Source of the DNA: a virus
Lineage: Duplodnaviria; Caudoviricetes
Strand: one strand, 5' to 3'
DNA: 64,000 bases
Virus record (IMG/VR): IMGVR_UViG_3300044513_003764
Coordinates: 14,451-78,450 of that record
The notes below the pieces were generated by a model. It did no database searches and was not told where the DNA came from. It saw nothing but the letters and a program-made list of their open reading frames with translations. Position 1 is the stretch's first letter. Each line of letters starts with the position of its first letter. Of this stretch, positions 16,954 to 59,822 are shown piece by piece. A program made the translations under genes and the position numbers.

Positions 16954-17676
16954 TCAAACTCCAGAAACGGCTGCAATCAGATTGCCAACAATAGTGGAAG
17001 TACTGGCTGCGTAATAAGCGAGCAAATCAGTCCCGCTCGGGGTCACTGTAAGAGTAGGAGCAGCTCCATTGGAGAAGGACCAGCCGCCGCTATAAGAAAG
17101 TAAACGAGTGCCAGTGCCGTCTTGACGGATATAAATAGCACCGCTCTGACCGCCGCTTGGAGACACGCTGGGTGCAAGGGTCGAGTCACCCTGGAGGGTG
17201 ATGTCGAAGTTATTATTGGCGGAGAAGTCGAGAAGGATTACGCCAGAGCTTACGGTCGAAGAAACAACTCCGTAAGACTGAGAGTCGACCACGAGAGTTC
17301 CGCTGACAATATCGCCAGCTTTAGAGACCTTCGACGTTAGGTCAGTAAGAGCCGCACTACCAGATGCAAGAGCGGTGGAAGCATCGACAAGGGCTGCGTT
17401 ACCGGAAGCGAGGGCAGTAGCAGCAGAGGCAAGAGCAGCATTACCGGAAGCCTGGGCGGAACCGTCAATCGCCAGGGCATCGTCGGCGAAGATCAGGCCG
17501 CTGGCAGCAGGTGCAATCGATGCGTTGATGGTTACCGTGCCGCCGGTAAGGTCGCCGCCGCCGTCTAAACCACTGCCAGCAGCCAGAGTTCCGGCTGTTG
17601 CGCCGACAACGGTATCGCCGACCGGAAGTTCGGAAGTAACTCCACTAACTACAACTAACGGTCGACGTGTTGCCAT
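16954..17676 (-). CDS. fibre-proximal adaptor-like protein with ASGNAAL repeats
   Basis: ASGNAAL coiled-coil repeats; C-terminal LDFS...QDGTGTRLLSY domain; paralog of 22912..23580. Confidence 0.7.
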   Translation of the reverse strand: MATRRPLVVVSGVTSELPVGDTVVGATAGTLAAGSGLDGGGDLTGGTVTINASIAPAASGLIFADDALAIDGSAQASGNAALASAATALASGNAALVDASTALASGSAALTDLTSKVSKAGDIVSGTLVVDSQSYGVVSSTVSSGVILLDFSANNNFDITLQGDSTLAPSVSPSGGQSGAIYIRQDGTGTRLLSYSGGWSFSNGAAPTLTVTPSGTDLLAYYAASTSTIVGNLIAAVSGV

Positions 17677-17705
17677 GGCTTTTCCCTCGTTATTTAAGTA
17701 TAACC

Positions 17706-18209
17706 TCAGTCGTAGAGGATGACGGGAGGTTCGATCTCGACCTGTAGCTCAGTATTACTTAAGGCTTGGCCAATATTGACCAAAGCCGCGTAACCACTGG
17801 CTGCAGTAACGGTACCGGAAGCAGTACTAAAAGCAGTTAACTGCCCGTCGTACTGAGACAAGTAGTAGTACTGACCGGGAACGAGCTCGGTAGCAGCAGT
17901 GATGTTTGCTGCACCAATAACCGCAGTGTCATCGAGGATGACAGCAACGGTGGACGAGGTAGAAGCAGCTGCGGCAGTAATACCGATAGCGTTGTACTGA
18001 GTGGATGCCACGCCGCTTGCTGCTGAGGCAGGAAGGACGTAGGTTCCACTGACGTAAACGACCTCACCCTGGATCAGGTTGGCTCCAGCGGTGAAATCTT
18101 GAGTGGTCGCAGGCGACGTAGAGACACCGGCACCATTGACGAGCCAGACCTGCTGACCCGCCGGGGTGAAATCAGTGTACTGTCGGTTGAAAATACCGCG
18201 TGTCGTCAT
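17706..18209 (-). CDS. virion structural protein (DUF2190/cement-like)
   Basis: AGANLIQGEVVYV...AIGI...IGQALS pattern; paralog of 23583..24059. Confidence 0.55.
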   Translation of the reverse strand: MTTRGIFNRQYTDFTPAGQQVWLVNGAGVSTSPATTQDFTAGANLIQGEVVYVSGTYVLPASAASGVASTQYNAIGITAAAASTSSTVAVILDDTAVIGAANITAATELVPGQYYYLSQYDGQLTAFSTASGTVTAASGYAALVNIGQALSNTELQVEIEPPVILYD

Positions 18210-18214
18210 AGCGA

Positions 18215-18724
18215 TCAGACTCCACTAGGGTCAACACCGCTCGGTTCGACGTATTGGGGCCAATAGTTGTAGTCAGAGGGAGCACCGCCGGAAGGGGTGA
18301 TGTAAGTGACGTAATCAGCCAGTCCGGGAGTATCGGTGGTCAGGGACAGCATGGTCACCTTGCCTTCGCAGGCGTAACGGATGTCCTGACGCCAAGCCTT
18401 AAGGCCGCTGGGTACCACGGTGCCGTTGTCGGCCTCACGAATGACCATCCAGTCAGTCGGAGCCAGAAAGCCATTTGCCGCTTGACGCGTCGTGTCGGTC
18501 CACTGGGTGACCAGCTGACCATGATCCTTAGGGATCAACGTACCGCTAGCTGTATATCCCCAGTAAAAACGTTGGTCGTAGGAGGGAGGGTCCGGAACCC
18601 AAGTAATACCAATGGCTTCACGAGCTGCGGTTGAAGATAACCTCAGCCAATTAGCAGGATAAAGGGTACCGTTTGCCTCAAACGGCCTATCGAGGGCTAA
18701 CGGTTTTCCGTTTAAGACAAACAT
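18215..18724 (-). CDS. tail fibre assembly-like protein
   Basis: YPANWL, DQRFYW, FLAPTDWMVIRE and WRQDIR motifs; directly after fibre 2. Confidence 0.6.
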   Translation of the reverse strand: MFVLNGKPLALDRPFEANGTLYPANWLRLSSTAAREAIGITWVPDPPSYDQRFYWGYTASGTLIPKDHGQLVTQWTDTTRQAANGFLAPTDWMVIREADNGTVVPSGLKAWRQDIRYACEGKVTMLSLTTDTPGLADYVTYITPSGGAPSDYNYWPQYVEPSGVDPSGV

Positions 18725-18795
18725 CGCCGCGCGGATTTTTTTAAATTCTAACCGTTAAGTCGACGGTAGAGCAAATGCCGACTTTATTAGTTTCT

Positions 18796-21700
18796 CTATC
18801 GCGCACGGGTGTACTTGAAGGGGTTTTCGGCGAAAGCTGCCCACACATAAGTAGTGTTGGCAAAGTTACTAGATTGAAACGCATTACGTATTTTAAATCC
18901 GTTTGATACAAAGTCGCCGAACGCGGCGTTCGCATCCTCATCCTGTGTGTTAGGTCGTAGATAGTCACCTACGACATTGTAAGGATTCCGTTGGGCATCA
19001 AGAATGATCCAATCAGTTGTATCAGTAGAGGCTTTGAATAGCAGCCACCGTGGTCTGAAACCTGTAGACAGGAACGGTCCATCTGAAGACCCGGTCCCAA
19101 CGTATGAGCCAAAAGCGCTAAAACCATCGACTGGGGCGAAACAAAGGGCCAAACAATTACCAATGACCTGGCCGTTCGTGCCAACAGTAAACACGTCTGG
19201 TGTTGGCTCCGTATTATTCCATCTATCTATACTCTGATTTGCAATATTATTTCGTTGCAGAATTAAATACGAAGTAGCAGTTAGGCTCTCATGGTAAACC
19301 ATCCAGGAAAGCGCACTGTCTCTATTTTTTACAATTATCAGGGCTGGTTTGGCTCCGAGACCGTGAGCTACAGTCACATTACCTGTTGACCCTCCGTCAT
19401 AAGTAACGACGGAGCACCCGGCACTGACGTTAGCTCTCACAGTAGATGCAACAGTCCCCGCTCCTGGCGTAACACCAGGCGTATAAGTGGTGTTAGACGA
19501 CCCAACATTCCAAATCCAGCCGACATAGGTGCCGCCGGATTGATTAGTTTCGAGACCAGAACCTGAAAGATTAAAACCTGTAGAGGTCGTAGATGTAATA
19601 ACGCTAGTTGTATCCTCTGAAAGTGCTTGGTTCGGATAAAGGGTTTTAGTTGCCGACGTACCAAACCCACGGAGAGCGTCGTAGAGGACATGATCTGCGA
19701 GAGGTAAGTTTCGTCTCTTAATCCAAAGAAGACTCGGATCGAACCCTGTTCCAGGTAAGGTTATTGTCTGAGCACTTCCTGTTCCCGAATAGGTGACGAC
19801 ATCCATAGCGGTGGATGAGTTTTTAATCAAAGGCTCGACGAGGTTGGCGGTGCAGAGTGCTTTGAAGCCTTCGGGGGCGGCGTGGGCGAAGGGGCGTTGG
19901 CCGAAGTTTAAGTTTGCAGTGCTATATGCACCGCCTCCGAGCTCACCAACCTCAGGCGAATAAAGTCCGGCAGACATACCAGAAAATGCTACGCCTTGGC
20001 TTGATCCATTCCTGTAAAAGGTTATCGAGAGATTCTGTAAATCAAGAGCAACACCAATTACATCGCCGCTGACCCAAGTATCTCCATACGAACTAGTGAT
20101 GTTGTTATTCATCTTAAGTCCATTATTTCGGTAGATATAACTAGCAGAACTTTGGCCAGGGATGCCAACTGTTCGTCCCACACCTAGAGCTCCCCAGTCA
20201 GATCCAACTACATTGGAAAAAGTCGCCTCCCAGTACCATTTACCAGAAGAAACAAAGAAAGTTGAAAGCGCGCCCGATGCTACGCTTGCGCTGCCTACTA
20301 AGGTGAGATTGCCGTTGGATATTGTTGTTTGATTGTTGGCCAGCGGGTTGAGCGTGCAATAGTTCCCGCTGATTTGACCGCCCAACCCGGTGTCACCGCT
20401 AGAAGCACCGGATGTGGGGTGATCTGTGAGGGTATCAGTGTTCCCATTAGAAACATATGTGTTAGGACCAACCACGTACTTGCCTACACCACCGAGCCAG
20501 GTATTAGCTACTTCAGTTAGTTTGATCGTATTTGTGGTCGAATCAACCTCAAACACGTTACCTGTACCAGCCGCCTTGGTTACTTCAGCAGTTTGAGTAC
20601 TGCTGGTATCCCATGACCCGCCTGTACCGCTCAGTAAGAGCTGATTAGCGCTAGGTGCGCTTCCAAGAACAGTACCATTAGGAATCAGATCAGCGTCTTT
20701 AAGAATCTGACCGTTTACACGGATTGCGTGCCAACGCGGGAAATTACTACTGCCACCGTAAAACTCTCGAACCTGAATGCTAGTTAGGTTGCCACTAAAT
20801 GGAAGGAGAGCTGTTACGTCGTTCCATCCAGCTCCGGTATTGGTAACCCAACCTGATCCATTGACAGAAACTTCGCTGCTGGTATTACCTACCTCCAAAT
20901 ACACTTCTAAACGTTGAACGTTTGAAATTGAAGTGTTATGCGTAATAATGTTTGTAGTATTACTACCGAACAGTGTTGCATAACCACTTGTGCTGCCGTT
21001 ATACAAGCTGGTAGGGTTAGTAACAGTAGCAGATGAGCCTCCAGAGGTTCCGGTAAGATTAGAGCTATAGGTAGGACCGGCAGAAGCGTTGTCCTGGTAG
21101 ATAGTATCTCCTGCAGCAAAACTTGAAAGGTTAGTAGAACCAGTCAGATCTAGCTTGGTGTCACCCCTTACAGCCTTAACGCCATCAATGTAATAGCCTG
21201 ACACATATTGATTAGCATTAGCAGCATAAGCATCTACAAGACCTAACAAAGTAGGAGTAGAAAAGGTGTGCGTTACTAGCCACGCTGAACCTGCCCATCC
21301 ACTAATTGGCTTTAGGACCGCAGTAGCTGTTGAGCTTACGTTAACTCCGTTAACATTTAACCTGCTTCCATCAACATTCCAACCGCTGCTATTATTGGAC
21401 ATGGTGGCCCAGACACCAATGCTAGTGACATACAGGCCCAAACTTGTAAAGTCTGCAGATGCAGTCGAGAGACCTGGACTCCAAGGCGGAACACTGTTGT
21501 ATTCAGGTCTAAAAGCGTTAGCAATTGTGTTGAGATTGCCAGTGAAAGTGGCATCGTTCTGATAATCTAGGCGCGTAAAACCAGAGATAGTATCTGAAGA
21601 TAGTGTCGTACCGCTATCTTGTGAAACAGCGTCAGAAGGGTAAATCTTACTAAGATCTTGATCTGAAGCTAACGTAAGGACGGTCTTAGCAGGAAGAATA

Positions 21701-22908
21701 GTCCAGTCGTTTGCGGCAACGTTTTGACCAGGATTCGCGTAAGCGTAGTATTGATAAGCGGTTGTTGAGGTTATTCTCCTACCTCTGTTTGTCTCGTAAG
21801 CAATAAAGTTCCAAGTGGCCCCACCATTATTTGATCCGTATAAAACGGCTGCCTGAGCACTAATAAGTGATGGGTATCCAATGGTTACTGCACTAGCAGT
21901 ATCTAACTCAAAATAAAGCCACGCGTCAGATCCCCAGTTAATAACTGAAGGATCGGAAGGGTTAAACGTTGAACCTACATTAATAACCTGATCGCCCATA
22001 TTAATGGCCGATGCCCAGCTATTATTTGGCGCACCAGCGTTAGATCCGCCGCCTCTACGGTTTTTAAAGGTAGAAACCGCCTGGGATTCAATAGTAACTG
22101 TGCTAATAGTATCTGTGTTAGCAGCAGTAACACCTAAAGGCGTAAAGTTTACCGCATCGAAATTATTACCCTGTCCACTACTATCGTAACCAAGAGACTC
22201 AATGGAACCTGTGTTACTGAAGGTAAGACGATAGCCGTTAGTGCCGTAGGTCAAACCAGAAAGGTCCGAGAGCGGATTCCATACGCCAGTGGTGGGGTCA
22301 AACTCACCGAAGTCGGTGGGGGCTAGCGCTTGACCGTCGATGAAGTTGATGTCGGCTAGGTAAGCGGATAAATAGACTCCCCGAAAAGTACCGTAAGTGC
22401 CAATGCCGTGTTCAACAGTCGTATTGATTAAGCTGTTAAGACTCGGAGACGGGTTTGTCCTTGTGCTGAATTGGTCTACTTCTACACCGTTAATGTAAAT
22501 ACGATGCCTAGAATCTGCAGTACCGTTGCTGGAGTCCCAGACAACAACCATGTGCGCCCAGGCTGACGGATCTCGAAAACCTTGGTCCGTAATCAAACGA
22601 GCTGTATAGGATCCACTTTGAATCTGAGCAAAATCAAGCGTATTGCCACTTAGATAACGTAAAAACTGACCATTAGTCGCTCCCGCGTCTAAGTAACCAA
22701 ACAAAATCTCGTTGACATCTAGCTTGGATTTCTTTACCCAAAAGCTAAGTGTCCACGTATTAAGGTCACCCTCATTTGCCGGGAAACGGCTAAGGTACGC
22801 GCTATCAGCTGCGTTAAACCGCAGCGATTTTTTGATTTCGGAGCCACCGCCGCCAGCAGCAGCTCCAGCAGCGCCAAAAAAGGGAGCCGACGCAGAACCT
22901 AATGCCAT
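18796..22908 (-). CDS. tail fibre / receptor-binding protein 2 (LamG-like, large central insert, SPRY-like)
   Basis: Same N- and C-terminal domains as fibre 1 (ends YVWAAFAENPFKYTRAR) plus about 550 aa of extra central sequence. Confidence 0.8.
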   Translation of the reverse strand: MALGSASAPFFGAAGAAAGGGGSEIKKSLRFNAADSAYLSRFPANEGDLNTWTLSFWVKKSKLDVNEILFGYLDAGATNGQFLRYLSGNTLDFAQIQSGSYTARLITDQGFRDPSAWAHMVVVWDSSNGTADSRHRIYINGVEVDQFSTRTNPSPSLNSLINTTVEHGIGTYGTFRGVYLSAYLADINFIDGQALAPTDFGEFDPTTGVWNPLSDLSGLTYGTNGYRLTFSNTGSIESLGYDSSGQGNNFDAVNFTPLGVTAANTDTISTVTIESQAVSTFKNRRGGGSNAGAPNNSWASAINMGDQVINVGSTFNPSDPSVINWGSDAWLYFELDTASAVTIGYPSLISAQAAVLYGSNNGGATWNFIAYETNRGRRITSTTAYQYYAYANPGQNVAANDWTILPAKTVLTLASDQDLSKIYPSDAVSQDSGTTLSSDTISGFTRLDYQNDATFTGNLNTIANAFRPEYNSVPPWSPGLSTASADFTSLGLYVTSIGVWATMSNNSSGWNVDGSRLNVNGVNVSSTATAVLKPISGWAGSAWLVTHTFSTPTLLGLVDAYAANANQYVSGYYIDGVKAVRGDTKLDLTGSTNLSSFAAGDTIYQDNASAGPTYSSNLTGTSGGSSATVTNPTSLYNGSTSGYATLFGSNTTNIITHNTSISNVQRLEVYLEVGNTSSEVSVNGSGWVTNTGAGWNDVTALLPFSGNLTSIQVREFYGGSSNFPRWHAIRVNGQILKDADLIPNGTVLGSAPSANQLLLSGTGGSWDTSSTQTAEVTKAAGTGNVFEVDSTTNTIKLTEVANTWLGGVGKYVVGPNTYVSNGNTDTLTDHPTSGASSGDTGLGGQISGNYCTLNPLANNQTTISNGNLTLVGSASVASGALSTFFVSSGKWYWEATFSNVVGSDWGALGVGRTVGIPGQSSASYIYRNNGLKMNNNITSSYGDTWVSGDVIGVALDLQNLSITFYRNGSSQGVAFSGMSAGLYSPEVGELGGGAYSTANLNFGQRPFAHAAPEGFKALCTANLVEPLIKNSSTAMDVVTYSGTGSAQTITLPGTGFDPSLLWIKRRNLPLADHVLYDALRGFGTSATKTLYPNQALSEDTTSVITSTTSTGFNLSGSGLETNQSGGTYVGWIWNVGSSNTTYTPGVTPGAGTVASTVRANVSAGCSVVTYDGGSTGNVTVAHGLGAKPALIIVKNRDSALSWMVYHESLTATSYLILQRNNIANQSIDRWNNTEPTPDVFTVGTNGQVIGNCLALCFAPVDGFSAFGSYVGTGSSDGPFLSTGFRPRWLLFKASTDTTDWIILDAQRNPYNVVGDYLRPNTQDEDANAAFGDFVSNGFKIRNAFQSSNFANTTYVWAAFAENPFKYTRAR

Positions 22909-22911
22909 CTA

Positions 22912-23580
22912 TCAAACTCCCTGGAAGTTTGCGGTAAGAATAGCTAAGAAGCCTGAAGAGGATGCACAATAATAAGTAAGTGCATCGGTAGATCCAGCAG
23001 CGGTCGAAAGGGTAGGCGCCGAACCGCCAGTAAACTGCCAACCACCGCTGTAACTGAGTAATCGACTGCCTGTACCGTCTTGGCGAACAACGATCTGGCC
23101 AGTCTGGCCGCCACTGGCGCTGGTAGGAGCCGCCAGAGTGTTGTTAGCGTCGTTAAGGGTGATATCGAAGTTATTACCGCTGCCGAAATCGAGGAAGATG
23201 ACGCCAGAGACAGTCGAGGTCGAGATCGTACCGATCGACTGAGACTGAACGGTTACGGGACCCGAGATAGGGCCACCGGTCTTGTCATACTTACCGCTAA
23301 GGTCAGTTAAAGCTGCGTTACCAGAAGCTTGAGCGGTAGCAGCATCGACAAGAGCAGCGTTACCGGAAGCGAGGGCGGCAGAGGCTTCAACTAAAGCTGC
23401 GTTACCGGAAGCTAAAGCTTCGTGCGCGAGCTCGCCGCTAGCAGAAGCAGCATAACGAACATCGAGTACGCCAACGTCAACACGCTTATTTAGTGTCCCG
23501 GAGGCTTGAATTACAGGGAAGTAGTCGCCACTGGCCAGCGTTGTAATCGCTGAAAATTGCGATATTTTTTGGCTGGCCAT
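22912..23580 (-). CDS. fibre-proximal adaptor-like protein with ASGNAAL repeats
   Basis: KISQFSAIT N-terminus, three ASGNAAL repeats, QDGTGSRLLSY domain. Confidence 0.7.
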   Translation of the reverse strand: MASQKISQFSAITTLASGDYFPVIQASGTLNKRVDVGVLDVRYAASASGELAHEALASGNAALVEASAALASGNAALVDAATAQASGNAALTDLSGKYDKTGGPISGPVTVQSQSIGTISTSTVSGVIFLDFGSGNNFDITLNDANNTLAAPTSASGGQTGQIVVRQDGTGSRLLSYSGGWQFTGGSAPTLSTAAGSTDALTYYCASSSGFLAILTANFQGV

Positions 23581-23582
23581 CG

Positions 23583-24059
23583 TTACGCAGTCTCTAAATC
23601 AATTGTAGACCCATCCTCCTGAAGCATAGCATCTAGGATTGCTCCGACGCTCGACTCCAACAAGAAGACAGACGTTGGGTTAGTAACAAAGAGCGGTCTA
23701 GAGGTTTCAACCTCAAGTTTTGTCGAGGTAATCGCTCGACCGACAATAGAAAGGTAGGCACCCTCGTAAGCAGTAAGGGCCAAGCCCGACGCCCACGCGG
23801 AATAATCAACGTTTACCCCAGAAGCTAGTAGGGATAGATATCTATACTCACCAGGGTTATATCCACTGCCTCCGCTGTAAATAGCATCAGCATTAACTCG
23901 AATTAAAGCGCCTGCAGATCCTGCATCAAGAGCGACGCCGACAACAGACGCTGTATCAAGCTCGAGAGCGTTCGCTTTAAAAAGTAGACCAGAGGAGTTG
24001 AGGGCTACCGCATCCCCAGCTGAGATTGATTCTCCCGCCTTAAAAGAATTAATAGCCAT
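23583..24059 (-). CDS. virion structural protein (DUF2190/cement-like)
   Basis: FKAGESISAGDAVAL...VVGVALD...IVGRAI pattern. Confidence 0.55.
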   Translation of the reverse strand: MAINSFKAGESISAGDAVALNSSGLLFKANALELDTASVVGVALDAGSAGALIRVNADAIYSGGSGYNPGEYRYLSLLASGVNVDYSAWASGLALTAYEGAYLSIVGRAITSTKLEVETSRPLFVTNPTSVFLLESSVGAILDAMLQEDGSTIDLETA

Positions 24060-24083
24060 CTCGACCTACTAGATCAATTAAGT

Positions 24084-24206
24084 CTAACCTTTTCCTTGGC
24101 CACGGGATTTTTTACGTCCGTGACTGGGAAGGCTGTGACGCCCTTGACCCTGACGGGTCTTCTTGGGCTTGGACTCGATCTGCTGAACGTTCTTGGGTTT
24201 CGACAT
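24084..24206 (-). CDS. small basic protein (40 aa), not in ORF track
   Basis: MSKPKNVQQIESKPKKTRQGQGRHSLPSHGRKKSRGQGKG*; KKTRQG...RGQG type recalled from cyanophages. Confidence 0.6.
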   Translation of the reverse strand: MSKPKNVQQIESKPKKTRQGQGRHSLPSHGRKKSRGQGKG

Positions 24207-24922
24207 TAGTCGACGTTGTTAACGGTCAGGATGATACTCGGAATGTCGGGGTGTGCTGGGACTGCGTGCCCGCTCGCAGCAAGAGCGACAACATCTAAGT
24301 CCTCAGAGTGCCAATAGAGTTCTGCAAACTCGTTAGTGTCCATAGAAAGCAAGAAGTTCCACGCGGCAACATTACGGTCCGAGGATCCCTCGACAACGAT
24401 AGTAGTCGCGCTCCAAGGCACACCTACACCGTTCTTGCTCAACCAAATATCTACGTCTTCCTTATTAGCACTACTCTTCTCTAGTTGTGCGGAAAACTGG
24501 ATGTTGTACACGCCAGAGTTAGCGACCTGGATCATCGATCCCGACACGACCGCAACGCCACGGGAATCAACAGTGGTGTTGTACGTGAATGCGTTACCGG
24601 AGGCTGCTGAAGGGTTTGTCTGTGTCGTAGTGTCAAAAGCGTTTAAGAAATACCGCTGTGTCGCTGGTGTCCCAGCAGCGCCGCTAGGACCAACAGCACC
24701 GCTAGGTCCAACAGCACCGCTAGGTCCGATAGCGCCGCTAGGTCCAATAGCACCACTGGGTCCGGTAGGACCAGGAATGCCGTTGTTGATCAGAACAAGA
24801 GTACCGTCGTCCCTAGTCGTATATAAGTAACCAGACGGAGTATCGAGTACGAGCTCCCCAACGGCGGGATCACCCGTAACTACGCCAGATGCAGTTCGCT
24901 TGAGACGCTGATAGTTAGCCAT
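24206..24922 (-). CDS. collagen-like tail/appendage protein
   Basis: N-terminal RLKR...GELVLDT (Mtd_N-like), Gly-X-Y repeats, C-terminal beta-sandwich (GVYNIQFSAQL). Confidence 0.75.
   Translation of the reverse strand: MANYQRLKRTASGVVTGDPAVGELVLDTPSGYLYTTRDDGTLVLINNGIPGPTGPSGAIGPSGAIGPSGAVGPSGAVGPSGAAGTPATQRYFLNAFDTTTQTNPSAASGNAFTYNTTVDSRGVAVVSGSMIQVANSGVYNIQFSAQLEKSSANKEDVDIWLSKNGVGVPWSATTIVVEGSSDRNVAAWNFLLSMDTNEFAELYWHSEDLDVVALAASGHAVPAHPDIPSIILTVNNVD
24665..24781 (-). repeat. 18-nt tandem repeat encoding (GPSGAI/V)x5 collagen helix
   Basis: CGCTAGGTCC/CGCTAGGACC units at 18-nt period; in-frame Gly-X-Y. Confidence 0.9.
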
Positions 24923-25827
24923 CAGTAAACACCTCCGTCAATGTCGATATCCACCCAGGATGAGCCATCCCAGACCTTGAGACGGTTAGTAGAGGTATCG
25001 AACCAACCAGCACCCTGAGTACTCGTCGCAGCAGGTGCCGCAGGTCCGTAAGCAAAGCTTCGAGAAGGTCCGGTCTCGTACCAGCCCGAAGTGGTTGCGT
25101 CGTATACGAACAACGAACCCATGAGGGTGTTGAACCAGATCGAACCGTCGCGAGGAGGTGCATTCTCGCCGGTACCCGAAGGAGCGATCTCCGACTTAAG
25201 TGCGATAGCTTCTGCGTTCGTCTGATACCACGCAGGCAACTCAATACCGTTACCCGAGGCGTACACAAACAGTCGACCTTCGTTGGTGTCAAACCAGAGG
25301 TCGCCCGCAGAGTAGTTTGTGCCGGGTGCACCAGAAACGGTTACAGAAGCACCGCCGCCACCGCCACCAGCAGAGGTTCCGCTGATGAGCGCGAGAGAAC
25401 CGCTGTAGTTGACGGAAACAGAGCCCTCACCCTCTGCATACAGGTTGAACTTAGTACCGCCGTCAGATAAGTAGATACCGGAACCAGCGGTATAGAGAAT
25501 CCCGGAAGCGGACGTAACAGTCGCGTTTATGACTGTGTAGCTACCGGAAGCGCTGAAGTAGATACCACTTCCAGCTGCGATATCTGCACCTCCGCCTCCA
25601 GCAGATATCCCGCTAATACTCGTATTTAAATCTTCGAGAGCCCTTACTACACCTTCGAAATTCCAGGGATACCCGTAAGGGCAACGAGAGTAGCTTGTAG
25701 TTCCCACGCCGCTTACGGTTGCAATCAGTTCTTCGATAACGGTGACGATACCTTCGAAGCTCTCAGAGTGCAGAGCCCGAGGAAACGTGCCGTGAGTTGG
25801 ACAAGGAGGCGAATTGATTTCAGGCAT
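24922..25827 (-). CDS. virion structural / tail-associated protein
   Basis: Repeated GDLWFDT, GSIWFNT and GWFDT...LKVWDG motifs typical of phage tail proteins; Gly tracts. Confidence 0.7.
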   Translation of the reverse strand: MPEINSPPCPTHGTFPRALHSESFEGIVTVIEELIATVSGVGTTSYSRCPYGYPWNFEGVVRALEDLNTSISGISAGGGGADIAAGSGIYFSASGSYTVINATVTSASGILYTAGSGIYLSDGGTKFNLYAEGEGSVSVNYSGSLALISGTSAGGGGGGASVTVSGAPGTNYSAGDLWFDTNEGRLFVYASGNGIELPAWYQTNAEAIALKSEIAPSGTGENAPPRDGSIWFNTLMGSLFVYDATTSGWYETGPSRSFAYGPAAPAATSTQGAGWFDTSTNRLKVWDGSSWVDIDIDGGVY

Positions 25828-43513: not shown

Positions 43514-43536
43514 AAAAAACCCTCCCGAAGGAGGGT
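43514..43536 (-). terminator. intrinsic terminator (UUCG loop) after the scaffold gene
   Basis: ACCCTCC-TTCG-GGAGGGT-TTTTT. Confidence 0.9.
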
Positions 43537-43562
43537 CGGAGCGATATTCCGGTGAAAGTCTA

Positions 43563-46250: not shown

Positions 46251-46409
46251 TTACTTAGAAGACTTCATCTCTTTGTGCTTACGGGCTTTATCCCGAGCAC
46301 GGGTGCGCTTTTCAGAGTCGCCGCGAAGTTCCTCACCGCTAGGAGCTTTGGTTTCTTCCTGCTTTTCTTTAAAACGCGCTAAGACTTCAGCGGGCATTTT
46401 ATCGGACAT
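46251..46409 (-). CDS. small charged protein (52 aa), not in ORF track
   Basis: MSDKMPAEVLARFKEKQ...ARKHKEMKSSK*. Confidence 0.55.
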   Translation of the reverse strand: MSDKMPAEVLARFKEKQEETKAPSGEELRGDSEKRTRARDKARKHKEMKSSK

Positions 46410-47834: not shown

Positions 47835-48125
47835 TTAACTCTCCTCCTCAGAAATTTCGATTAATTTCTGCAGATACCACGCGCATTTCTTTAGGTCTTC
47901 GACACCATTTTTAAATTCGGTACGCCAAAGGTATTTCAGGCAGGCTCCCCGACAGTAAGAACGTAAGCCCTCCTTACCTAAGGCAGACTCAAGCGCATCA
48001 ATACACTCAATGGAACCCTGCGTGTAGTGTGCAGGATGATCTACAGGATCACTAAAGAGCATAGGTTTGCTGGGTGAAAGGTCGTCGATCTCATTAAACA
48101 AGAATCTATCTTCCTCGAAGAGCAT
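47835..48125 (-). CDS. DUF3310 family protein
   Basis: DPVDHPAHYTQGSIECID...KYLWR..KNGVEDLKKCAWYL. Confidence 0.85.
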   Translation of the reverse strand: MLFEEDRFLFNEIDDLSPSKPMLFSDPVDHPAHYTQGSIECIDALESALGKEGLRSYCRGACLKYLWRTEFKNGVEDLKKCAWYLQKLIEISEEES

Positions 48126-50598: not shown

Positions 50599-51771
50599 AT
50601 GGCAAAGATTCTCTGGTACGGAGACATTCTTTCGAACACAGGGTTCGCTAGAGTCACACATAGTATTCTTGAGCACCTAGCAAAAGATAATGAAGTAGTC
50701 GCGTTTGGTATCAACTACGCTGGAGATCCTCATAATCTCCCATTTAAGGTCTACCCCGCTGCAGCTAATAACCCGTCTGATCGCTTTGGTATAGGCCGAT
50801 TACCACAGGTCGTCGAAGCTGAAGATCCAGACTTCATCATCTGCCTGAATGACATCTGGGTGGTCAACCAAGTCTGGGAAAGGATTCACCTCCTTCAGTC
50901 CACGCTTGGATTTAAATTCATCGCCTACTTCCCGATCGATTCGGAGTGGTATATCGAGAGCCACCTTCGCTATGTGAAGGACTGGGATTTCGCGATCACC
51001 TTCACGATCGAGCAGGCTCAAAGGCTCATGAAGCACGGCATCACCCCCAAGTTGATGGGTGTGGTGCCTCACGGCATCGATACCTCTAAGTTCTTCGCCA
51101 TGGAGCGCGATGAGGCTCGCAGGCAACTGAAGCTGCCTTTAGATAAGTTCATCGTTCTCAACGCAAACCGAAACCAGCCGCGCAAACGAATCGACTTGAC
51201 CATCAAGGCGTTTGTCGAGTTCGCTAAAGACAAACCAGATACGATGCTGTATCTCCATATGAGCGAGAAGGACCTCGGTTGGGACGTCCGCGCTCTGTTT
51301 GAGACGGAGATGAAGCGGAATGGTCTTAAGTCGGATCAACGACTGATCATGACCTCCAACAACATCAACTACGTCAACGCTCCCCCTGACGAGCTGCTCA
51401 ATAAGATCTACAACGCTTGCGATGTCGGTATCAATACGGCAAACGGAGAAGGCTGGGGTCTCGTTCCTTTCGAGCACGCCTCCTGTAAGCGAGCTCAGGT
51501 CTTACCTGACCACACGTCCTGCGCCGACATCTGGAAAAACAAAGCGCCTCTCGCCCGAGTTGCCTCTTGGATTTACGACAAAGATCTTGGTGTGGAGCGG
51601 GGAATCGTAGACACAGGACACATGGCAGAGCTACTGACTGAGCTCTACGAGGACGAGACCTACAGAAATCAAGTTGCTGAGTCCTGCTTTGAGGTCACGC
51701 AGAATCCGTCCTACAGGTGGGACCGAATCGCCGAAGGTTTCCAACGCGCCATGGAGGAGCTGAGCAAGTGA
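50599..51771 (+). CDS. glycosyltransferase family 4 (GT-B)
   Basis: NTGFARV, ANRNQPRKRID, DVGINTANGEGWGLVPFEHA motifs. Confidence 0.88.
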   Translation: MAKILWYGDILSNTGFARVTHSILEHLAKDNEVVAFGINYAGDPHNLPFKVYPAAANNPSDRFGIGRLPQVVEAEDPDFIICLNDIWVVNQVWERIHLLQSTLGFKFIAYFPIDSEWYIESHLRYVKDWDFAITFTIEQAQRLMKHGITPKLMGVVPHGIDTSKFFAMERDEARRQLKLPLDKFIVLNANRNQPRKRIDLTIKAFVEFAKDKPDTMLYLHMSEKDLGWDVRALFETEMKRNGLKSDQRLIMTSNNINYVNAPPDELLNKIYNACDVGINTANGEGWGLVPFEHASCKRAQVLPDHTSCADIWKNKAPLARVASWIYDKDLGVERGIVDTGHMAELLTELYEDETYRNQVAESCFEVTQNPSYRWDRIAEGFQRAMEELSK

Positions 51772-52853
51772 GTCTGCAATTCCACCGATATCGGACTTAT
51801 CACGACAGAGCAGTTCGTAAAGTCCACCTCCCTTCAAGCAAAGGTTTTCCCTCCGTATACCTCCAAGCGCAGGAGATTGGTGGGGAGTTCGTGCGAATAA
51901 CTGATGGTCTGCCTCCCACGGCTGTCGCTAACTTCAGTCCTTGCGTACTTAAGCACCATGGATCGACACTGATTGCGTGGCGATCACAACCAGAACCTTT
52001 TGTGTTCCGGCACGACATGAAGTACTTCTACTACAACAACACGCCAACCGACATTTACGTAGGAGAGCTGCTTAGGGACGACACGATTGTCGCTCCGAGG
52101 AAACTAAGGGCAGGTAAGCATCGCCTCAGCTACGAGGACCCTCGCCTTTTCCTGTCGCCCGACGACAAGCTCCACTGCCAGTTCATCACAAGTAGCTACG
52201 CCAGTAAGTGGGATAGCTCGAAGCACAAACTGGTTAAGAGCCCCAAGGTCTGCACAGGATTGATTGACGAGTGGGGTCAGCTCGTCGACTGCTTCTTCCC
52301 TCCTCTAGGACGGAACCTTCAGGACGGAGCAGCGGAGAAAAACTGGTGTTTCTACTCCAAAGGAGACGAACTAAAACTCCTTTACTCCACGGCTCCGATC
52401 GTCATCAAGACTCCTGGCCAGGAAGACAAGGTAATCGACTCGTCCTGTTTGAAGGAAGTTACAGGCAACCACCCGACTTTTAACTCAACCGCACCTGTGC
52501 AGATTGGGGACGAGTGGCTTGTTTTCTACCACTTCAAGTACATGGTGCACGAGCTCGATAAGAGACCGTACCTCATGTATGCGCTTAGCGCCTACACACT
52601 CGATGAAGACCAGACGAAGATCGTCCGCATGATGAAGGAGCCTCTCTTCGTAGGTTCGACTAACGATGATTTAATCACCTGGACGGATGCAGTTGGAAAC
52701 GACATCTCGCATCAACCAGCTTGCATCCTTCCCTTTGGTTGCTTCATCGAGGATGAAGAGGAGCTCGTTATGTCACTCGGCGTAAACGACTCCTTCATGG
52801 GCATCTTTAGAACGCCAGTACTAAACGTGCTAAGTTTGATGCAACGTGTTTAA
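51768..52853 (+). CDS. beta-propeller glycosidase/phosphorylase-like protein (GH130/GH43-like)
   Basis: NFSPC...YEDPRLF...EKNWCFY motifs; GTG start overlaps the GT4 stop. Confidence 0.6.
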   Translation: MSLQFHRYRTYHDRAVRKVHLPSSKGFPSVYLQAQEIGGEFVRITDGLPPTAVANFSPCVLKHHGSTLIAWRSQPEPFVFRHDMKYFYYNNTPTDIYVGELLRDDTIVAPRKLRAGKHRLSYEDPRLFLSPDDKLHCQFITSSYASKWDSSKHKLVKSPKVCTGLIDEWGQLVDCFFPPLGRNLQDGAAEKNWCFYSKGDELKLLYSTAPIVIKTPGQEDKVIDSSCLKEVTGNHPTFNSTAPVQIGDEWLVFYHFKYMVHELDKRPYLMYALSAYTLDEDQTKIVRMMKEPLFVGSTNDDLITWTDAVGNDISHQPACILPFGCFIEDEEELVMSLGVNDSFMGIFRTPVLNVLSLMQRV

Positions 52854-52895
52854 TCTAGAAGCCAAGGGAGTTCGCTCTCATTAAACACGTCGGTG

Positions 52896-52918
52896 GGGAG
52901 CTTACAGGCTCCCTTTTT
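52896..52918 (+). terminator. intrinsic terminator
   Basis: GGGAGC-TTACAG-GCTCCC-TTTTT. Confidence 0.75.
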
Positions 52919-56404: not shown

Positions 56405-57091
56405 TTAAGCGAATTTAAAACCTTCAGAAATATCAACTAAACCAGAGCCGCTGAAGTGACCAAACGAAGTTAGATCAAGCTTGGGACTCTGTATCCGACG
56501 CCAGTTCATAACTTCCGACTCAAAACGGATGTCATCTAAAAATAACCAACGGTTCTTCTTGGAGAAGGTGACCGTAGACAAAAGGCTTAAGAACTTCTCC
56601 TCAAACTTACCGTCCTTAGGTCCATCACACATGATAAAGGTAGACTCAATAAACCTGTCCCTGTGAGCCTCAAAGATTTCAGGCTCCTGTAGGTTATCTG
56701 TGAACTGAGTCAGTCGACCTCCCTCTGAGACAAAGTCATCCGGTGTTAGGTAGGTAGTTTCGAACTGGTGCCAAGGAAGAACATCAAACGTATCGACCAC
56801 AGCCTCAAACGCGTAATCGAGCATCACACGGGTCCCTGTGCCGTAGTGAGTACCAACATCGACAATCTTCACCTGCCCTTCGTCATCAACAAGGTGTGTC
56901 AAAAGACCAGCTAACAGCCGGTAATGATCACCGGGGAAGCAGTTAGCAAAGGGGTTATCAATAGAAAGCCTCAGCTTCGAGGCAGTCGATAAAGCCCTGA
57001 GGACATAGTCAAACTTAGAGAATGACTGTGTAGCAGGATCGTCGTCTACTGAAAGGATTGCCGAAGGGAAAGCCTGACGTACAGAGACCAT
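56405..57091 (-). CDS. class I SAM-dependent methyltransferase (Methyltransf_24-like)
   Basis: IVDVGTHYGTG motif I; MCDGPKD and FLDDI motifs. Confidence 0.75.
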   Translation of the reverse strand: MVSVRQAFPSAILSVDDDPATQSFSKFDYVLRALSTASKLRLSIDNPFANCFPGDHYRLLAGLLTHLVDDEGQVKIVDVGTHYGTGTRVMLDYAFEAVVDTFDVLPWHQFETTYLTPDDFVSEGGRLTQFTDNLQEPEIFEAHRDRFIESTFIMCDGPKDGKFEEKFLSLLSTVTFSKKNRWLFLDDIRFESEVMNWRRIQSPKLDLTSFGHFSGSGLVDISEGFKFA

Positions 57092-57121: not shown

Positions 57122-57892
57122 CTAAAAACCTAGATTCTTATGACGACAGAACTCCAGGTCCCAGGTAGTAAAGCTGTTGGGAAGCTCAGGGATATTAAAA
57201 GGAGTTTTGTAAGTCTCTCCTTCAACGTGGGCTTGCCACGCTTCGCTCCACTTAGCGTGTAGGTATCTCTTATTCATTTCGTGCGCTACGTGAACAGCAT
57301 TCTGCAGGCGAGGTTCGGAACGCCAGGTCTGAGACCCGTCGGAATAATCCTTTTTGGTTCCGTGGTAGTACCCGTGCTCCAGGCTTAAAACGCGCTTGAC
57401 GTCGTCGTGAATAAAGCGCATCCCATAATCCATATCCTCGCAATAGCCGGGGTAGAGATTCTCATCAAACAACCCGTACTTCTGGACCATCCAATCTTTA
57501 AGTAGGAAGATATCCCAGCCGCCGCCAGAACCGTGCACGATACCAACTTCTTCGTCTTCTGCTTTTGAGCTCATCTCTCCGAGAAAACCCGGCTCAAACA
57601 TCACGTCGTGGTTTGAGATCACCCAGTAGGGTGCCTTCATAAAGCTTTTGATTATCAGGTTCCACGCTCCGGAGCACCCGATATTGGCTGGCATGTGGGT
57701 TACATGCACCTTCCGCACAAAGGGATTTACAAGGCTTTTAACAGCTTCCACCTCCTCAGTAATCTGACCCCTACCGTTGTTATTGAAAACAACAAAATTA
57801 TCTACAGGGTAATCAATGCTCATGAAGAGCCTGTGTAACCAATAGGGATTATTAACAATCGCCGTACCAATTACAGGGATGGGTTTTGACAT
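57122..57892 (-). CDS. glycosyltransferase family 2-like protein
   Basis: NIGCSGAWN, ISNHDVMF and GLFDENLYPGYCEDMDY motifs. Confidence 0.8.
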   Translation of the reverse strand: MSKPIPVIGTAIVNNPYWLHRLFMSIDYPVDNFVVFNNNGRGQITEEVEAVKSLVNPFVRKVHVTHMPANIGCSGAWNLIIKSFMKAPYWVISNHDVMFEPGFLGEMSSKAEDEEVGIVHGSGGGWDIFLLKDWMVQKYGLFDENLYPGYCEDMDYGMRFIHDDVKRVLSLEHGYYHGTKKDYSDGSQTWRSEPRLQNAVHVAHEMNKRYLHAKWSEAWQAHVEGETYKTPFNIPELPNSFTTWDLEFCRHKNLGF

Positions 57893-58409: not shown

Positions 58410-58425
58410 CAGCGGTGACAGCATA

Positions 58426-58704: not shown

Positions 58705-58737
58705 CGAGGCTCGGGGTTGGCTTTGCCTACCGTAGGT

Positions 58738-59022
58738 CTAATTCTGAAGCCTTGCAAGCTGTTTGCAAACTGCTGTACGAGGCTCACCGTATAAACGCAG
58801 GCTGTTGAGCTGACACTCCTTAGCCCACTGTTCCTCTCGGCGCATTTCGACGGCTGCGGGATTAACGGTGAAGAACGCGACCCAGAGCAAGATAAAAAGG
58901 AAAGGTGTCCCAAACCAGACAGCAAGCTTGGTAAGAGAGTTAACGCCCGCATAGACGGCAACTGCTTGCACTGCGTGCTTGGAGTCCAGGTTGATGTTGG
59001 TGTTGTTAGTCATGTAGGTCAC
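58738..59022 (-). CDS. membrane hypothetical protein
   Basis: Hydrophobic segment LAVWFGTPFLFILLWVAFFTV; directly behind a near-consensus promoter. Confidence 0.6.
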   Translation of the reverse strand: MTYMTNNTNINLDSKHAVQAVAVYAGVNSLTKLAVWFGTPFLFILLWVAFFTVNPAAVEMRREEQWAKECQLNSLRLYGEPRTAVCKQLARLQN

Positions 59023-59036
59023 CTTGTGACATGCAC

Positions 59037-59065
59037 ATCATACACAGCACACCTAAGCGTGTCAA
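59037..59065 (-). promoter_or_regulatory. near-consensus sigma70 promoter
   Basis: TTGACA-17 nt-TATGAT. Confidence 0.75.
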
Positions 59066-59105
59066 GAAAATACTGCTACCATGCTGAGAGCTTACAGAAC
59101 TTCAG

Positions 59106-59822
59106 ATGACCACAGCTTCTAAGCCTTCATTCAAAGAGCTTATGAGCCAGATGAAGCAGGATGCTCCCACAGTGGCTCCTACTGTCGCAATCCAAGGTAA
59201 TAAGAAAAAGCTTGACGAGCGGTATGACCTTAATCAGTCCTGGTACGACGCTCTGCTTAACACCGACATGGTGCTTTGCTCGAGGGACGAAGCTAAAGAT
59301 CTCCGTCTAGACCCGGAAGCTAAGAGGCAGATTGTCGAGATCGGAGTATACGAGGGCGCCTCTTCGGCTTTCTGGTCTGATTTCTATATGAATCACCTGG
59401 AATCGCGTCTGATTTCGATCGATCCTTTCACCGGAAGCTCAGAACACCACGAAAAACCGGAAAACTACCCCGAACTGGAGCGCATCGAGCTTACTGCTCG
59501 TGGAAATATCGCTAAATCCGACAACGCAGCCAAGATCGAGATCCTTAAAGGTTGCAGCTGGGACGTTTTCCCTGAGCTGAATCGGCGTTTTGGCTCCGAA
59601 CCGTGGATTGACCTCCTGTACATCGACGGCGCACACGATCCAACCTCTGTAGCACGTGATACTACGCTCTATGTGCCGATGGTCAAGTCTGGGGGCGTTG
59701 TAATCTTTGATGATTACGGTCACCCTGATGTTAAAAGGGGTGTCGATGGCGCCTTGACGGCGTTCGCGTCCATGGAATTGGCTATCTTTACCGGATGGCA
59801 ACTCGCCTGCAAAGTCAAATGA
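59106..59822 (+). CDS. class I SAM-dependent methyltransferase (Methyltransf_24-like)
   Basis: IVEIGVYEGASS, ISIDPF, LLYIDGAH, GGVVIFDDY motifs. Confidence 0.85.
   Translation: MTTASKPSFKELMSQMKQDAPTVAPTVAIQGNKKKLDERYDLNQSWYDALLNTDMVLCSRDEAKDLRLDPEAKRQIVEIGVYEGASSAFWSDFYMNHLESRLISIDPFTGSSEHHEKPENYPELERIELTARGNIAKSDNAAKIEILKGCSWDVFPELNRRFGSEPWIDLLYIDGAHDPTSVARDTTLYVPMVKSGGVVIFDDYGHPDVKRGVDGALTAFASMELAIFTGWQLACKVK

Follow-up and report, generated by a model that had tools for sequence, protein, structure and literature searches.

A lineage-core glycan enzyme set and Ser-Gly-rich fibre proteins as two separate features of a predicted cyanophage genome

The window, that is, the whole 64,000-nucleotide stretch of DNA analysed here, makes up most of the 78-kb genome of an uncultured phage. 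Because this phage encodes NblA and is kin to S-EIV1 (KJ410740), a Synechococcus phage that is its nearest cultured relative, its gene content identifies it as a marine or estuarine cyanophage. The likeness to S-EIV1 covers, besides the terminase and portal proteins (Table 1), the GT4 glycosyltransferase (40% identity) and several head and tail genes. We examined a set of sugar- and methyl-transferring enzymes, most of them in or around the head genes, and a module of fibre proteins rich in the dipeptide Ser-Gly (SG). The original prediction, made from the sequence alone, had joined the two by proposing that the phage builds a methylated glycan on SG serines of its virion proteins.

Table 1. 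Genes of the window that bear on the glycan enzymes and the Ser-Gly-rich proteins (SG, Ser-Gly; GS, Gly-Ser).
Feature	Position	Strand	Evidence and counts
Second SPRY + DUF7483 virion protein	14494..16944	-	12 SG, 12 GS
Paralogue of 22912..23580	16954..17676	-	13 SG, 3 GS; 51% identity (alignment A2)
Small fibre-module protein	17706..18209	-	4 SG, 0 GS
Small fibre-module protein	18215..18724	-	5 SG, 0 GS; C-terminal end EPSGVDPSGV; weak tail-fibre-assembly PHROG match
Giant SPRY + DUF7483 virion protein	18796..22908	-	25 SG, 27 GS
Tail-fibre protein	22912..23580	-	13 SG, 4 GS; N-terminal anchor, ASGNAAL 14-residue helical repeats, conserved C-terminal domain
Small fibre-module protein	23583..24059	-	5 SG
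Collagen-like fibre protein	24206..24922	-	11 SG, 2 GS; PF01391 E 2e-5; tail-fibre PHROGs
SG-rich fibre-module protein	24922..25827	-	12 SG, 8 GS; WFDT...L.VY repeats
Minor tail protein	33463..34020	-	phrog_356 2e-18; 5 SG, all in C-terminal ~55 aa
Portal protein	43981..46218	-	42% identity to S-EIV1 portal-position protein; downstream end of terL-portal operon
GT17-like glycosyltransferase	46399..47214	-	PF04724 E 9e-14; DxD motif in SDCDE
DUF3310 protein	47835..48125	-	PF11753 E 8e-17; start codon overlaps GT-A gene end by 1 nt
Orphan GT-A-fold glycosyltransferase	48125..49030	-	AlphaFold2 pLDDT 89.5; Foldseek E 3e-6; VIA Z 10-11 to many GT-A families
Large terminase (terL)	49027..50550	-	PF17289; 52% identity to S-EIV1 terL
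GT4 (GT-B) glycosyltransferase, chlorovirus B736L type	50599..51771	+	PF00534 over curated cut-off; phrog_2170 5e-48
GH130-like beta-propeller protein	51768..52853	+	PF04041 sub-threshold (18.9 bits); homologues match
Class I SAM O-methyltransferase-like	56405..57091	-	atlas features 0.96-0.98; structure TM 0.65-0.89
GT2-like glycosyltransferase ('galactosyl transferase' PHROG)	57122..57892	-	phrog_29879 1e-24; PF00535 23.1 bits, just below cut-off
Methyltransf_24 SAM methyltransferase	59106..59822	+	PF13578 E 1e-19

The phage encodes a multi-enzyme glycan toolkit, probably a methylating one, and the predicted identities (GT17-like, GT-A, GT4 and GT2-like glycosyltransferases, a glycosidase-like gene and two SAM methyltransferases) proved right by Pfam, PHROG and structure matches. 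Environmental homologues of the GT17-like protein number over 300, and every one lies on a phage-size contig. No Pfam match was found for the GT-A-fold enzyme, in which E113-N-D115 is invariant. For the GT4 enzyme the sole PDB relative is B736L (3oy2; E 1.7e-19, full length), and its weak NCBIfam neighbours include lipopolysaccharide (LPS) and exopolysaccharide (EPS) transferases. Homologues of the GH130-like protein match PF04041 in 11 of 17 cases (best E 4e-9), and reading the sequence confirmed the GTG at 51768 as the true start of its gene. The protein at 56405..57091, which has no Pfam match, looks like an O-methyltransferase by protein-atlas features and structure search, the matches being Methyltransf_3/24 and rhamnosyl-O-methyltransferase clusters. 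We found no transmembrane segment or signal peptide in the seven enzymes checked, and no nucleotide-sugar synthesis genes were recognised in the window's genome.

Two of the glycosyltransferase genes lie between portal and terL, as predicted. Judged from the gene layout, translational coupling joins these two (GT17-like and GT-A) to the terL-portal operon: the terL stop overlaps the GT-A gene by 4 nt, the GT-A and DUF3310 genes overlap by 1 nt, and the first terminator-like hairpin is met only past the gene following portal (43537..43518). With part of the toolkit inside this operon, late expression and a virion-related role would be reasonable. The GT4 stop and the GH130 start overlap in GTGA. 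This pair adjoins terL but is encoded on the other strand and has a terminator-like hairpin of its own 3' of the GH130-like gene (52895..52914), so its position is no sign of co-transcription with terL. The late co-expression predicted from proximity to terL is thus reasonable for the GT17-like and GT-A genes but does not follow for the GT4/GH130 pair. The order portal-GT17-...-GT-A-terL-GT4-GH130 is preserved in most of 80 related loci, among which GT17 is present in all 80, portal in 78 and GT-A in 71, with median identities of 85% for GT17, 86% for portal and 91% for terL; all four near-complete relatives carry GT17, GT-A, GT2 and GH130. By these comparisons the enzyme set is lineage core, conserved like portal and terminase. 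The methyltransferase next to GT2 is Methyltransf_3/24-like in the window and FkbM-type instead in three relatives, and one relative additionally encodes RmlD of the dTDP-rhamnose pathway.

When we recounted the dipeptides, the SG numbers given in the original prediction were reproduced exactly for each protein, including the major capsid protein, which has 1. Pooled over the seven fibre-module proteins, SG occurs 63 times against 20-24 expected (20.4 in one calculation), alongside 20 GS and a depleted TG (10), an excess of about threefold over chance that is specific to residue order. Shuffling whole proteins gave z=10.5 for SG and shuffling inside 12-residue blocks z=9.7, and the comparison of SG with GS gave a binomial p=2e-6; the predicted strong excess of SG over GS therefore holds, for the fibre-module proteins only (z<2 in all other gene classes of the genome). 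After tandem repeats were collapsed and a single member of each paralogous pair retained, 40 SG against 17 GS remained (p=0.003). The protein at 23583..24059 is probably a paralogue of 17706..18209, judging from its place in a duplicated module. Eighteen different hexamers (codon pairs) spell SG in these proteins, and therefore the excess is not a DNA motif. It is retained in relatives at 44-61% identity, with a per-site retention of 0.41-1.0 among 17 homologues of 24922..25827; homologues of the minor tail protein 33463..34020 (n=10) have an SG/expected ratio of 2.3. Control phage fibres lack the excess. The C-terminal domain of 22912..23580 is common to fibres of S2B, CRP-811, PSS2, S-CBS2 and SS120-1, and fibres of other phages that share this domain show no SG excess.

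These properties (the size and order specificity of the excess, the depletion of TG, the confinement to fibre-module proteins, the conservation and the homologous domains lacking it) are on the side of an [A/P/V]-S-G acceptor sequon, at which the phage glycosyltransferases would O-glycosylate fibre serines. However, S-EIV1 is equally SG-rich: five of its virion proteins show a threefold excess (SG 56, expected 20, GS 15), and by profile searches it has no GT17, GT-A, GT2 or GH130, four of the five glycan-active genes, though the GT4 is still shared. A link between the excess and the glycosyltransferase set is thus not supported. S-EIV1 also differs in its fibre genes, which share no homology with those of the window and use [ST]-G beta-repeats. 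This comparison leaves a narrower form of the sequon, in which the B736L-type GT4 would initiate, the other glycosyltransferases extend and the methyltransferases cap; the initiator would have to be the GT4, since it is the sole glycosyltransferase common to all the SG-rich cyanophages examined (the window phage, S-EIV1 and S-CBS4), each with SG-rich small distal-tail proteins. CAZy family GT4 also contains the GtfA enzymes, which are Ser-O-GlcNAc transferases of serine-rich adhesins, although we know of no bacterial or phage protein glycosyltransferase with an SG sequon.

The sites themselves argue against an acceptor role. Two structural repeats, the 14-residue helical ASGNAAL unit and the GPS triplet of collagen, account for about a quarter of them. 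In the collagen-like protein, 5 of 11 SG fall within GPSGA[IV] triplet pairs (the stretch is GPSGAI/GPSGAV x5), bearing out the predicted GPSG character of the repeat; the ASGNAAL repeats, which vary from 2 to 7 copies among homologues, are predicted to be helical, and the AlphaFold2 model of 22912..23580 has a helix at residues 45-95. Several sites would therefore lie inside a helix or a collagen triple helix. Serine is better conserved within SG (0.74-0.91) than elsewhere (0.16-0.54), and where it is replaced in relatives we find T 47, N 37, A 30, G 29 and D 22 times; Thr, the commonest single change, would suit a sequon, but N, D, G and A jointly outnumber it, and the set as a whole fits ST/Asx turns and helix caps rather than a hydroxyl-only acceptor. 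In both giant SPRY + DUF7483 proteins, whose exposure is hardly in doubt, there is no asymmetry between SG and GS, and the main fibres of S-CBS4 have no excess either. Milder SG>GS biases occur in structural proteins of lambda and P-SSP7, with no glycosyltransferase seen annotated in the whole P-SSP7 record or in the left arm of lambda, the part examined. The analogy with the Ser-Gly sequon of eukaryotic proteoglycans, drawn in the original prediction, extends to the dipeptide only: that xylosylation sequon needs acidic flanks and a Golgi GT14 xylosyltransferase, whereas here A/P/V precede the dipeptide and V/N/T/A follow it, and the window has no GT14-like enzyme. On the S-EIV1 excess, the repeats, the replacements, the symmetry of the giant fibres and the flanks, SG serines as acceptor sites are not supported; we regard SG as an acceptor motif as decidedly unlikely, and O-glycosylation of these serines by the phage's own enzymes as quite unlikely.

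We favour reading the SG excess as an idiom of fibre structure conserved in this phage group rather than as a glycosylation sequon. The idiom would come in three forms: coiled-coil 14-mers of ASGNAAL, collagen triplets of GPS, and turns of the ST type preceding Gly. Against a purely structural origin, the same C-terminal domain occurs in fibres lacking the excess, so the fold alone does not force SG; Ser to Thr is the commonest single change; the GT4 accompanies SG richness in all three cyanophages; and the fibre model (pLDDT 45) is too poor for placing most SG sites. Two separate, real features are present, a lineage-core glycan toolkit and a Ser-Gly excess in the fibre module, and the evidence does not support joining them as a sugar-attachment system. 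Of the proposed methylated glycan on SG serines, the multi-enzyme and probably methylating toolkit stands, together with a precedent in mycobacteriophage Corndog discussed below; the serines as its acceptors do not.

What the toolkit acts on can be weighed separately. Cyanophage glycosyltransferases are usually discussed as host-surface remodelling agents, and GT2, GT4 and GT-A enzymes with FkbM or Methyltransf_24 methyltransferases are typical constituents of O-antigen and EPS clusters. The enzymes might thus modify host envelope glycans (LPS O-chain, exopolysaccharide or S-layer glycan), with SG unrelated, and so mask receptors to block superinfection or keep progeny from sticking to cell debris. 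The LPS/EPS transferases among the best, though weak, NCBIfam neighbours of the GT4, the RmlD of one relative and the position of the S-EIV1 GT4 near the primase gene, outside the structural module, point this way. However, no flippase, polymerase, Gtr-type membrane component or transmembrane segment was found, and two glycosyltransferases coupled to terL in a packaging operon and conserved like portal would be unusual for host-surface modifiers; we consider this reading somewhat unlikely. The GT4/GH130 pair, a self-contained cassette with its own terminator, also suggests auxiliary metabolic genes for the synthesis or remodelling of a soluble or storage glycan, for instance a mannoside or osmolyte-type glycoside: the GH130 family consists of mannoside phosphorylases, and the GT4 is weakly similar to sucrose-phosphate synthase and MshA-type enzymes. 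Four glycosyltransferases and two methyltransferases are too many for a simple metabolite, though, and the location inside the packaging operon also speaks against this improbable role. Glycosylation of hypermodified DNA bases to evade restriction, described as common for phage glycosyltransferases (PMC12619734, citing Pyle 2024), would agree with the DUF3310 protein and a ThyX homologue, but we found no ThyA-type dNMP hydroxymethylase, no glycosyltransferase of the T4 alpha/beta-glucosyltransferase type and no Tet/JBP match (the control genomes of that search were also unmatched). The sole recognised DNA-modification gene is a Dam-like methyltransferase, and we judge this function highly improbable.

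We propose, tentatively and with a probability of about 0.4, that the toolkit builds a short, partly O-methylated glycan that is placed on one or more virion proteins; the likeness to the head-module cassettes of Corndog and S-CBS4 makes virion glycosylation plausible. Soluble enzymes would contribute from three places: the GT17-like and orphan GT-A enzymes of the terL-portal operon, the inverted cassette of B736L-type GT4 and GH130-like propeller, and the GT2-like enzyme paired with a SAM O-methyltransferase, the second methyltransferase standing apart. The glycan would be added late in infection, and its sugars may be of the mannose or rhamnose type. Weighing against a virion acceptor, protein O-glycosylation is not known from the GT17, GT2 or GH130 families, the genome has no recognised gene for making nucleotide sugars, the strand that carries the GT4/GH130 cassette and the 59106 methyltransferase is not that of the head genes, and the S-EIV1 GT4 lies by the primase gene.

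Several known systems resemble this arrangement in part. Mycobacteriophage virion glycosylation cassettes were reportedly described by Freeman et al. in 2023. According to PMC11600133, PMC12363180 and PMC12619734, such cassettes belong to Corndog (gp35-38), Che8 and Myrna, the Corndog architecture is an experimentally proven precedent for virion glycosylation, and the known acceptors are the C-termini of capsid and tail tube proteins, not fibre SG motifs. As in the window, soluble phage glycosyltransferases and an O-methyltransferase sit inside a head morphogenesis module: in the structural gene block of Corndog the methyltransferase gp35 and the glycosyltransferases gp36-38 are encoded ahead of (upstream of) the major head protein gene, where the window has two glycosyltransferases between terL and portal. 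The window differs in its families (GT17, orphan GT-A, B736L-type GT4, GH130-like), with no detectable sequence similarity to the proven mycobacteriophage enzymes, which also counts against a virion acceptor, and in its spread over three transcription units and its cyanobacterial host. Chloroviruses (PBCV-1 A064R/A061L; NY-2A B736L, PDB 3OY2) encode cytoplasmic glycosyltransferases and sugar methyltransferases that produce a methylated glycan on a virion protein, and B736L, the only solved relative of the window GT4, binds GDP-mannose (PMC9614988). There the host is eukaryotic and an N-linkage joins the glycans to the major capsid protein, whereas the major capsid protein of the window, with its single SG, shows no sign of being a target. 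The Synechococcus siphovirus S-CBS4 has no GT17, GT-A or GH130 genes in its annotation at record positions 1-52000, and its virion module, with a tape measure protein, is unrelated to that of the window; the function of its cassette is putative. Nevertheless, S-CBS4 gp014 is a GT4 43% identical to that at 50599, gp015 is a 'galactosyl transferase' homologous to 57122 (25% identity, E 8e-10) and the SAM methyltransferase gp016 adjoins them, the three genes, dispersed in the window, being contiguous there in a head-module cassette just after portal (portal-gp013-GT4-GalT-SAM-MT); a few small distal-tail proteins of S-CBS4 are SG-rich.

The original prediction held that this phage builds a methylated glycan on the serines of Ser-Gly (SG) dipeptides in its exposed virion proteins. 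One part of it was supported, namely a conserved and probably methylating glycan toolkit in the head module, and the other part, the link between that toolkit and SG serines, was not. The observations behind it were confirmed. The GT17-like protein matches PF04724 (E 9e-14, 51.8 bits against a curated cut-off of 26) and carries a DxD motif (D105-C-D107, within SDCDE); the PF04724 match recurs in its homologues with one exception among the 120 listed of 300 found. For the GT-A protein, family searches returned no Pfam or CAZy family and a profile search of PDB sequences gave nothing useful. Its AlphaFold model (pLDDT 89.5) has a GT-A Rossmann-like fold (Foldseek E about 1e-6), in which an invariant E113-N-D115 occupies the position of the acidic, metal-binding DxD, and VIA gave Z values of 10-11 over ~200 residues to LH3, ppGalNAc-T, SpsA and TarS, all tied. 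Since these ties run across many GT-A families, with the collagen glycosyltransferases (GTs) LH3 and COLGALT1 among them, a specific family was rejected, and the collagen-GT top matches carry no specificity for this protein. The GT4 matches PF00534 (Glycos_transf_1; 36.7 bits, cut-off 26.4), and its sole solved relative is chlorovirus NY-2A B736L (3oy2_A, E 1.7e-19, residues 14-378 on 14-380); chlorovirus B736L binds GDP-mannose (PMC9614988). The GT2-like protein has a Pfam match just below threshold and matches phrog_29879 at 1e-24. The window copy of the GH130-like protein scores 18.9 bits against a PF04041 curated cut-off of 26, and 11 of its 17 homologues match PF04041 at E <= 0.01 (best E 4e-9); a profile search of PDB sequences found nothing for this family. 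The 59106 methyltransferase matches PF13578 (Methyltransf_24; 71.9 bits, E 1e-19), and the O-methyltransferase likeness of the 56405 protein comes from protein-atlas features and structure only. Both are read as class I SAM methyltransferases and putative sugar O-methyltransferases, and the 56405 gene lies next to the GT2-like gene. No transmembrane segment or signal peptide was found in any of the seven enzymes.

Genes and signals discussed in the text, by position in the window
Feature	Position	Strand	Remark
NblA-like gene, first	3781-3915		E 1e-7
Lysozyme/Peptidase_C39_2 fusion	11006-12241		411 aa
Fibre-region duplication	14494-24059
SPRY+DUF7483 giant, copy 2	14494		816 aa
Fibre, copy 2	16954	minus	240 aa
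Small protein, copy 2	17706		167 aa
SPRY+DUF7483 giant, copy 1	18796		1370 aa
Fibre, copy 1	22912	minus	222 aa
Small protein, copy 1	23583		158 aa
Collagen-like fibre protein	24206	minus
Small fibre-module proteins	16954..25827	minus	seven proteins
Dam-like methyltransferase	28640-29287		PF05869, E 9e-7
NblA-like gene, second	32051-32188		E 4.5e-5
SG-rich protein	42163-42960		265 aa; between MCP and portal genes
Terminator-like hairpin	43537..43518		after gene 43563..44489
Gene beyond portal	43563..44489	minus
GT17-like	46399	minus
GT-A	48125..49030	minus
GT4	50599	plus
GH130-like	51768	plus	GTG start
Terminator-like hairpin	52895..52914		closes GT4/GH130 cassette
terS-position protein	52918-53448		176 aa
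Methyltransferase	56405..57091
GT2-like	57122	minus
Sigma-70-like promoter match	59065..59037	minus	TTGACA-17 nt-TATGAT, 11/12
Methyltransferase	59106

Along the minus strand, terL is followed by GT-A, DUF3310, two small ORFs, GT17, portal and a further gene; terL and GT-A overlap by 4 nt, and GT-A and DUF3310 by 1 nt. An inverted cassette on the plus strand, made up of GT4 and the GH130-like gene, separates terL from the gene at the terS position, and the start of the GH130-like gene overlaps the GT4 stop. The terS-position protein has 40% identity in Synechococcus phage S-EIV1, the closest isolate (amino acid identities: terL 52%, portal 42%, GT4 40%), and a weak sub-threshold match to minor capsid protein P4 of the Phycodnaviridae (PF25661, E 7e-4). 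The pair of GT2 and methyltransferase lies upstream of the terL-portal genes, on the same strand as GT17 and GT-A; a promoter match heads the block that contains this pair. We found that the portal-to-GH130 block is syntenic in most of 80 related loci, over which GT17 has a median identity of 85%, beside 86% for portal and 91% for terL; the fibre proteins reach only 41-61%. Moreover, GT17, GT-A, GT2 and GH130 occur in four out of four near-complete relatives. Near GT2 the window encodes a Methyltransf_3/24-type methyltransferase, and three relatives (G001, G002 and G004) encode an FkbM-type one, which lies within ~0.7 kb of their GT2-like gene. The adjacency of GT and methyltransferase is thus kept despite a swap of methyltransferase family, which points to an O-methylated sugar as the product, and the conserved toolkit in the head module probably yields a methylated glycan. 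In one of these relatives, a cluster of GT2, FkbM methyltransferase and RmlD (dTDP-4-dehydrorhamnose reductase, of dTDP-rhamnose synthesis; G002 C1:35727-38597) hints at a glycan containing methyl-rhamnose.

Because of the translational coupling to terL, conservation as strong as that of core genes and the solubility of all seven enzymes, we consider glycosylation of virion proteins to be their single most likely role, with a probability of about 0.4. The main rival, in which the enzymes remodel glycans of the host envelope, seems to us rather doubtful. Glycosylation of phage DNA is unlikely, since it would call for a DNA GT together with a source of 5-hydroxymethylpyrimidine, either a ThyA-type hydroxymethylase or Tet/JBP, and the ThyA-type enzyme (PF00303) is absent from the genome in a search whose controls did match; a Tet/JBP search (PF12851) found no match in the genome, and its controls also matched nowhere. 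To our knowledge, virion self-glycosylation in tailed phages has been demonstrated in mycobacteriophages only. Comparable cassettes occupy the head modules of two other phages. In mycobacteriophage Corndog, one methyltransferase and three GTs lie upstream of the gene for the major head protein, within the structural gene block, and two papers citing Freeman 2023 report that they glycosylate capsid and tail tube (PMC11600133; PMC12363180). The window shares the Corndog/Che8-type placement, in which GTs, sometimes accompanied by an O-methyltransferase, lie within or beside the head or structural operon, as its GT17 and GT-A genes lie between terL and portal. None of the seven window enzymes had a BLASTP match to Corndog gp34-39 below E 0.1, and therefore any kinship with the Corndog system would be functional and architectural only. 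S-CBS4 (NC_016766), a Synechococcus siphovirus unrelated to the window phage, shows the order portal-gp013-GT4-GalT-SAM-MT (9161-12282), in which GT4 and GalT ('galactosyl transferase') are homologous to the window GT4 and GT2-like proteins. S-CBS4 has been isolated and its host strain is named, so that it looks good as an experimental proxy.

Every SG count in the original prediction was reproduced. The seven small fibre-module proteins contain 63 SG against 20.4 expected, 20 Gly-Ser (GS), and 10 Thr-Gly against 16 expected; no other dipeptide in them comes close to SG in over-representation. Composition and low complexity were rejected as sources of the excess, given that it persists in shuffles of whole proteins (z = 10.5) and within 12-residue blocks (z = 9.7) and that GS is at expectation. 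A DNA motif or codon-pair effect was also rejected, because 18 different hexamers encode SG; the signal therefore lies at the protein and not the DNA level. The sites share the context [A/P/V]-S-G-[V/N/T/A] and are not all independent, owing to a tandem-duplicated module, 14-residue repeats and collagen units. The duplicated module, each copy of which comprises a small protein, a fibre and a giant, may represent two alternative receptor-binding sets. The 14-residue ASGNAAL repeats occur in both of these fibres, and five GPSGA[IV] collagen units in the 24206 protein. With repeats and paralogues collapsed, the ratio of SG to GS is 40:17 (p=0.003). Homologues of five independent fibre families likewise have SG at 2.1-3.7 and GS at 0.4-1.4 times expectation, and the remaining gene classes, including both giant SPRY/DUF7483 virion proteins, stay at z<2. 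An SG-rich protein whose gene lies between those for MCP and portal has 7 SG against 2.8 expected, with ratios to expectation of 2.4 for SG and 1.1 for GS across its family (37 homologues). Depletion of SG in non-virion proteins, a would-be sign of a promiscuous enzyme, was not seen. The strong form of the idea that SG excess is a generic property of phage fibres was rejected, as it is absent in T7 gp17, lambda stf/J and P-SSP7 fibres, and likewise in five fibres from other phages with the same C-terminal domain as the 22912 fibre; lambda and P-SSP7 structural proteins show a mild bias of SG over GS.

The proposal that SG serines are GT acceptors failed in the sole comparison with and without the enzymes. 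S-EIV1 has no GT17, GT-A, GT2 or GH130 by protein and profile searches, and its complement consists of GT4 and a sub-threshold Methyltransf_24-like ORF only. Five of its virion proteins, largely [ST]-G beta-repeats, nevertheless keep the excess (56 SG against 20.3 expected; 15 GS). In six of eight window families, conservation of serine is 0.74-0.91 within SG and 0.16-0.54 elsewhere. Where an SG serine is replaced, the residues are T (47), N (37), A (30), G (29) and D (22), a set that suits ST/Asx turns and helix caps better than it does a hydroxyl acceptor. In addition, the ASGNAAL repeats are predicted to be helical, and their copy number, which varies from about 2 to 7 in the alignment of 22912 homologues, points to a putative coiled-coil shaft that has lengthened and shortened; the AlphaFold2 model of this fibre is poor (pLDDT 45) apart from helix 45-95. 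The S-EIV1 comparison, the conservation and replacement of serine and the helical repeats together lead us to favour a structural role for the SG excess. Nor does a Ser-Gly sequon of the eukaryotic proteoglycan type, cited in the original prediction, agree with the data: acidic flanks are absent (A/P/V before, V/N/T/A after), and there is no GT14 xylosyltransferase among the annotated genes.

Glycosylation directed to SG survives only in a narrow form, which builds on the GT4 in common with S-EIV1 and on Thr as the commonest single replacement. This B736L-type GT4 is the sole glycosyltransferase common to the window phage, S-EIV1 and S-CBS4, and it would act as a cytoplasmic protein O-glycosyltransferase, perhaps a mannosyltransferase, on assembling tail-fibre proteins. 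That GT4 starts a glycan on the [A/P/V]-Ser-Gly turns of the fibres, which GT17, GT-A, GT2 and GH130 would extend and the methyltransferases cap, strikes us as quite improbable. If true, the fibres of an abundant marine cyanophage group would bear a methylated glycan coat placed by a sequon. A methylated glycan coat on the particles of this lineage, if there is one, could affect adsorption, host range, stickiness, grazing and decay at sea, and it would link phage and chlorovirus glycan machinery via the B736L-type GT4. The negative result matters too, in that a striking dipeptide excess in fibres can outlast most of the enzymes suspected of using it, which calls for caution with readings that combine a sequon with a GT.

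The window covers bases 14451-78450 of one virus record of 78,450 bp (completeness about 97%), and megablast against deposited phages found no match for it. IMG/VR holds hundreds of related contigs, and environmental homologues of the GT17 gene alone number in the hundreds, indicating the abundance of the lineage in aquatic metagenomes. With its two NblA-like genes (PF04485) and its kinship to S-EIV1, the genome fits an uncultured marine cyanophage lineage that has NblA and S-EIV1 as closest relative (bioRxiv 10.1101/325100). The second of these genes sits within the structural region. S-EIV1 also encodes a homologue of the Dam-like N6-adenine DNA methyltransferase, and one of its hypothetical proteins is partly homologous to the window fusion of a phage lysozyme domain with Peptidase_C39_2.
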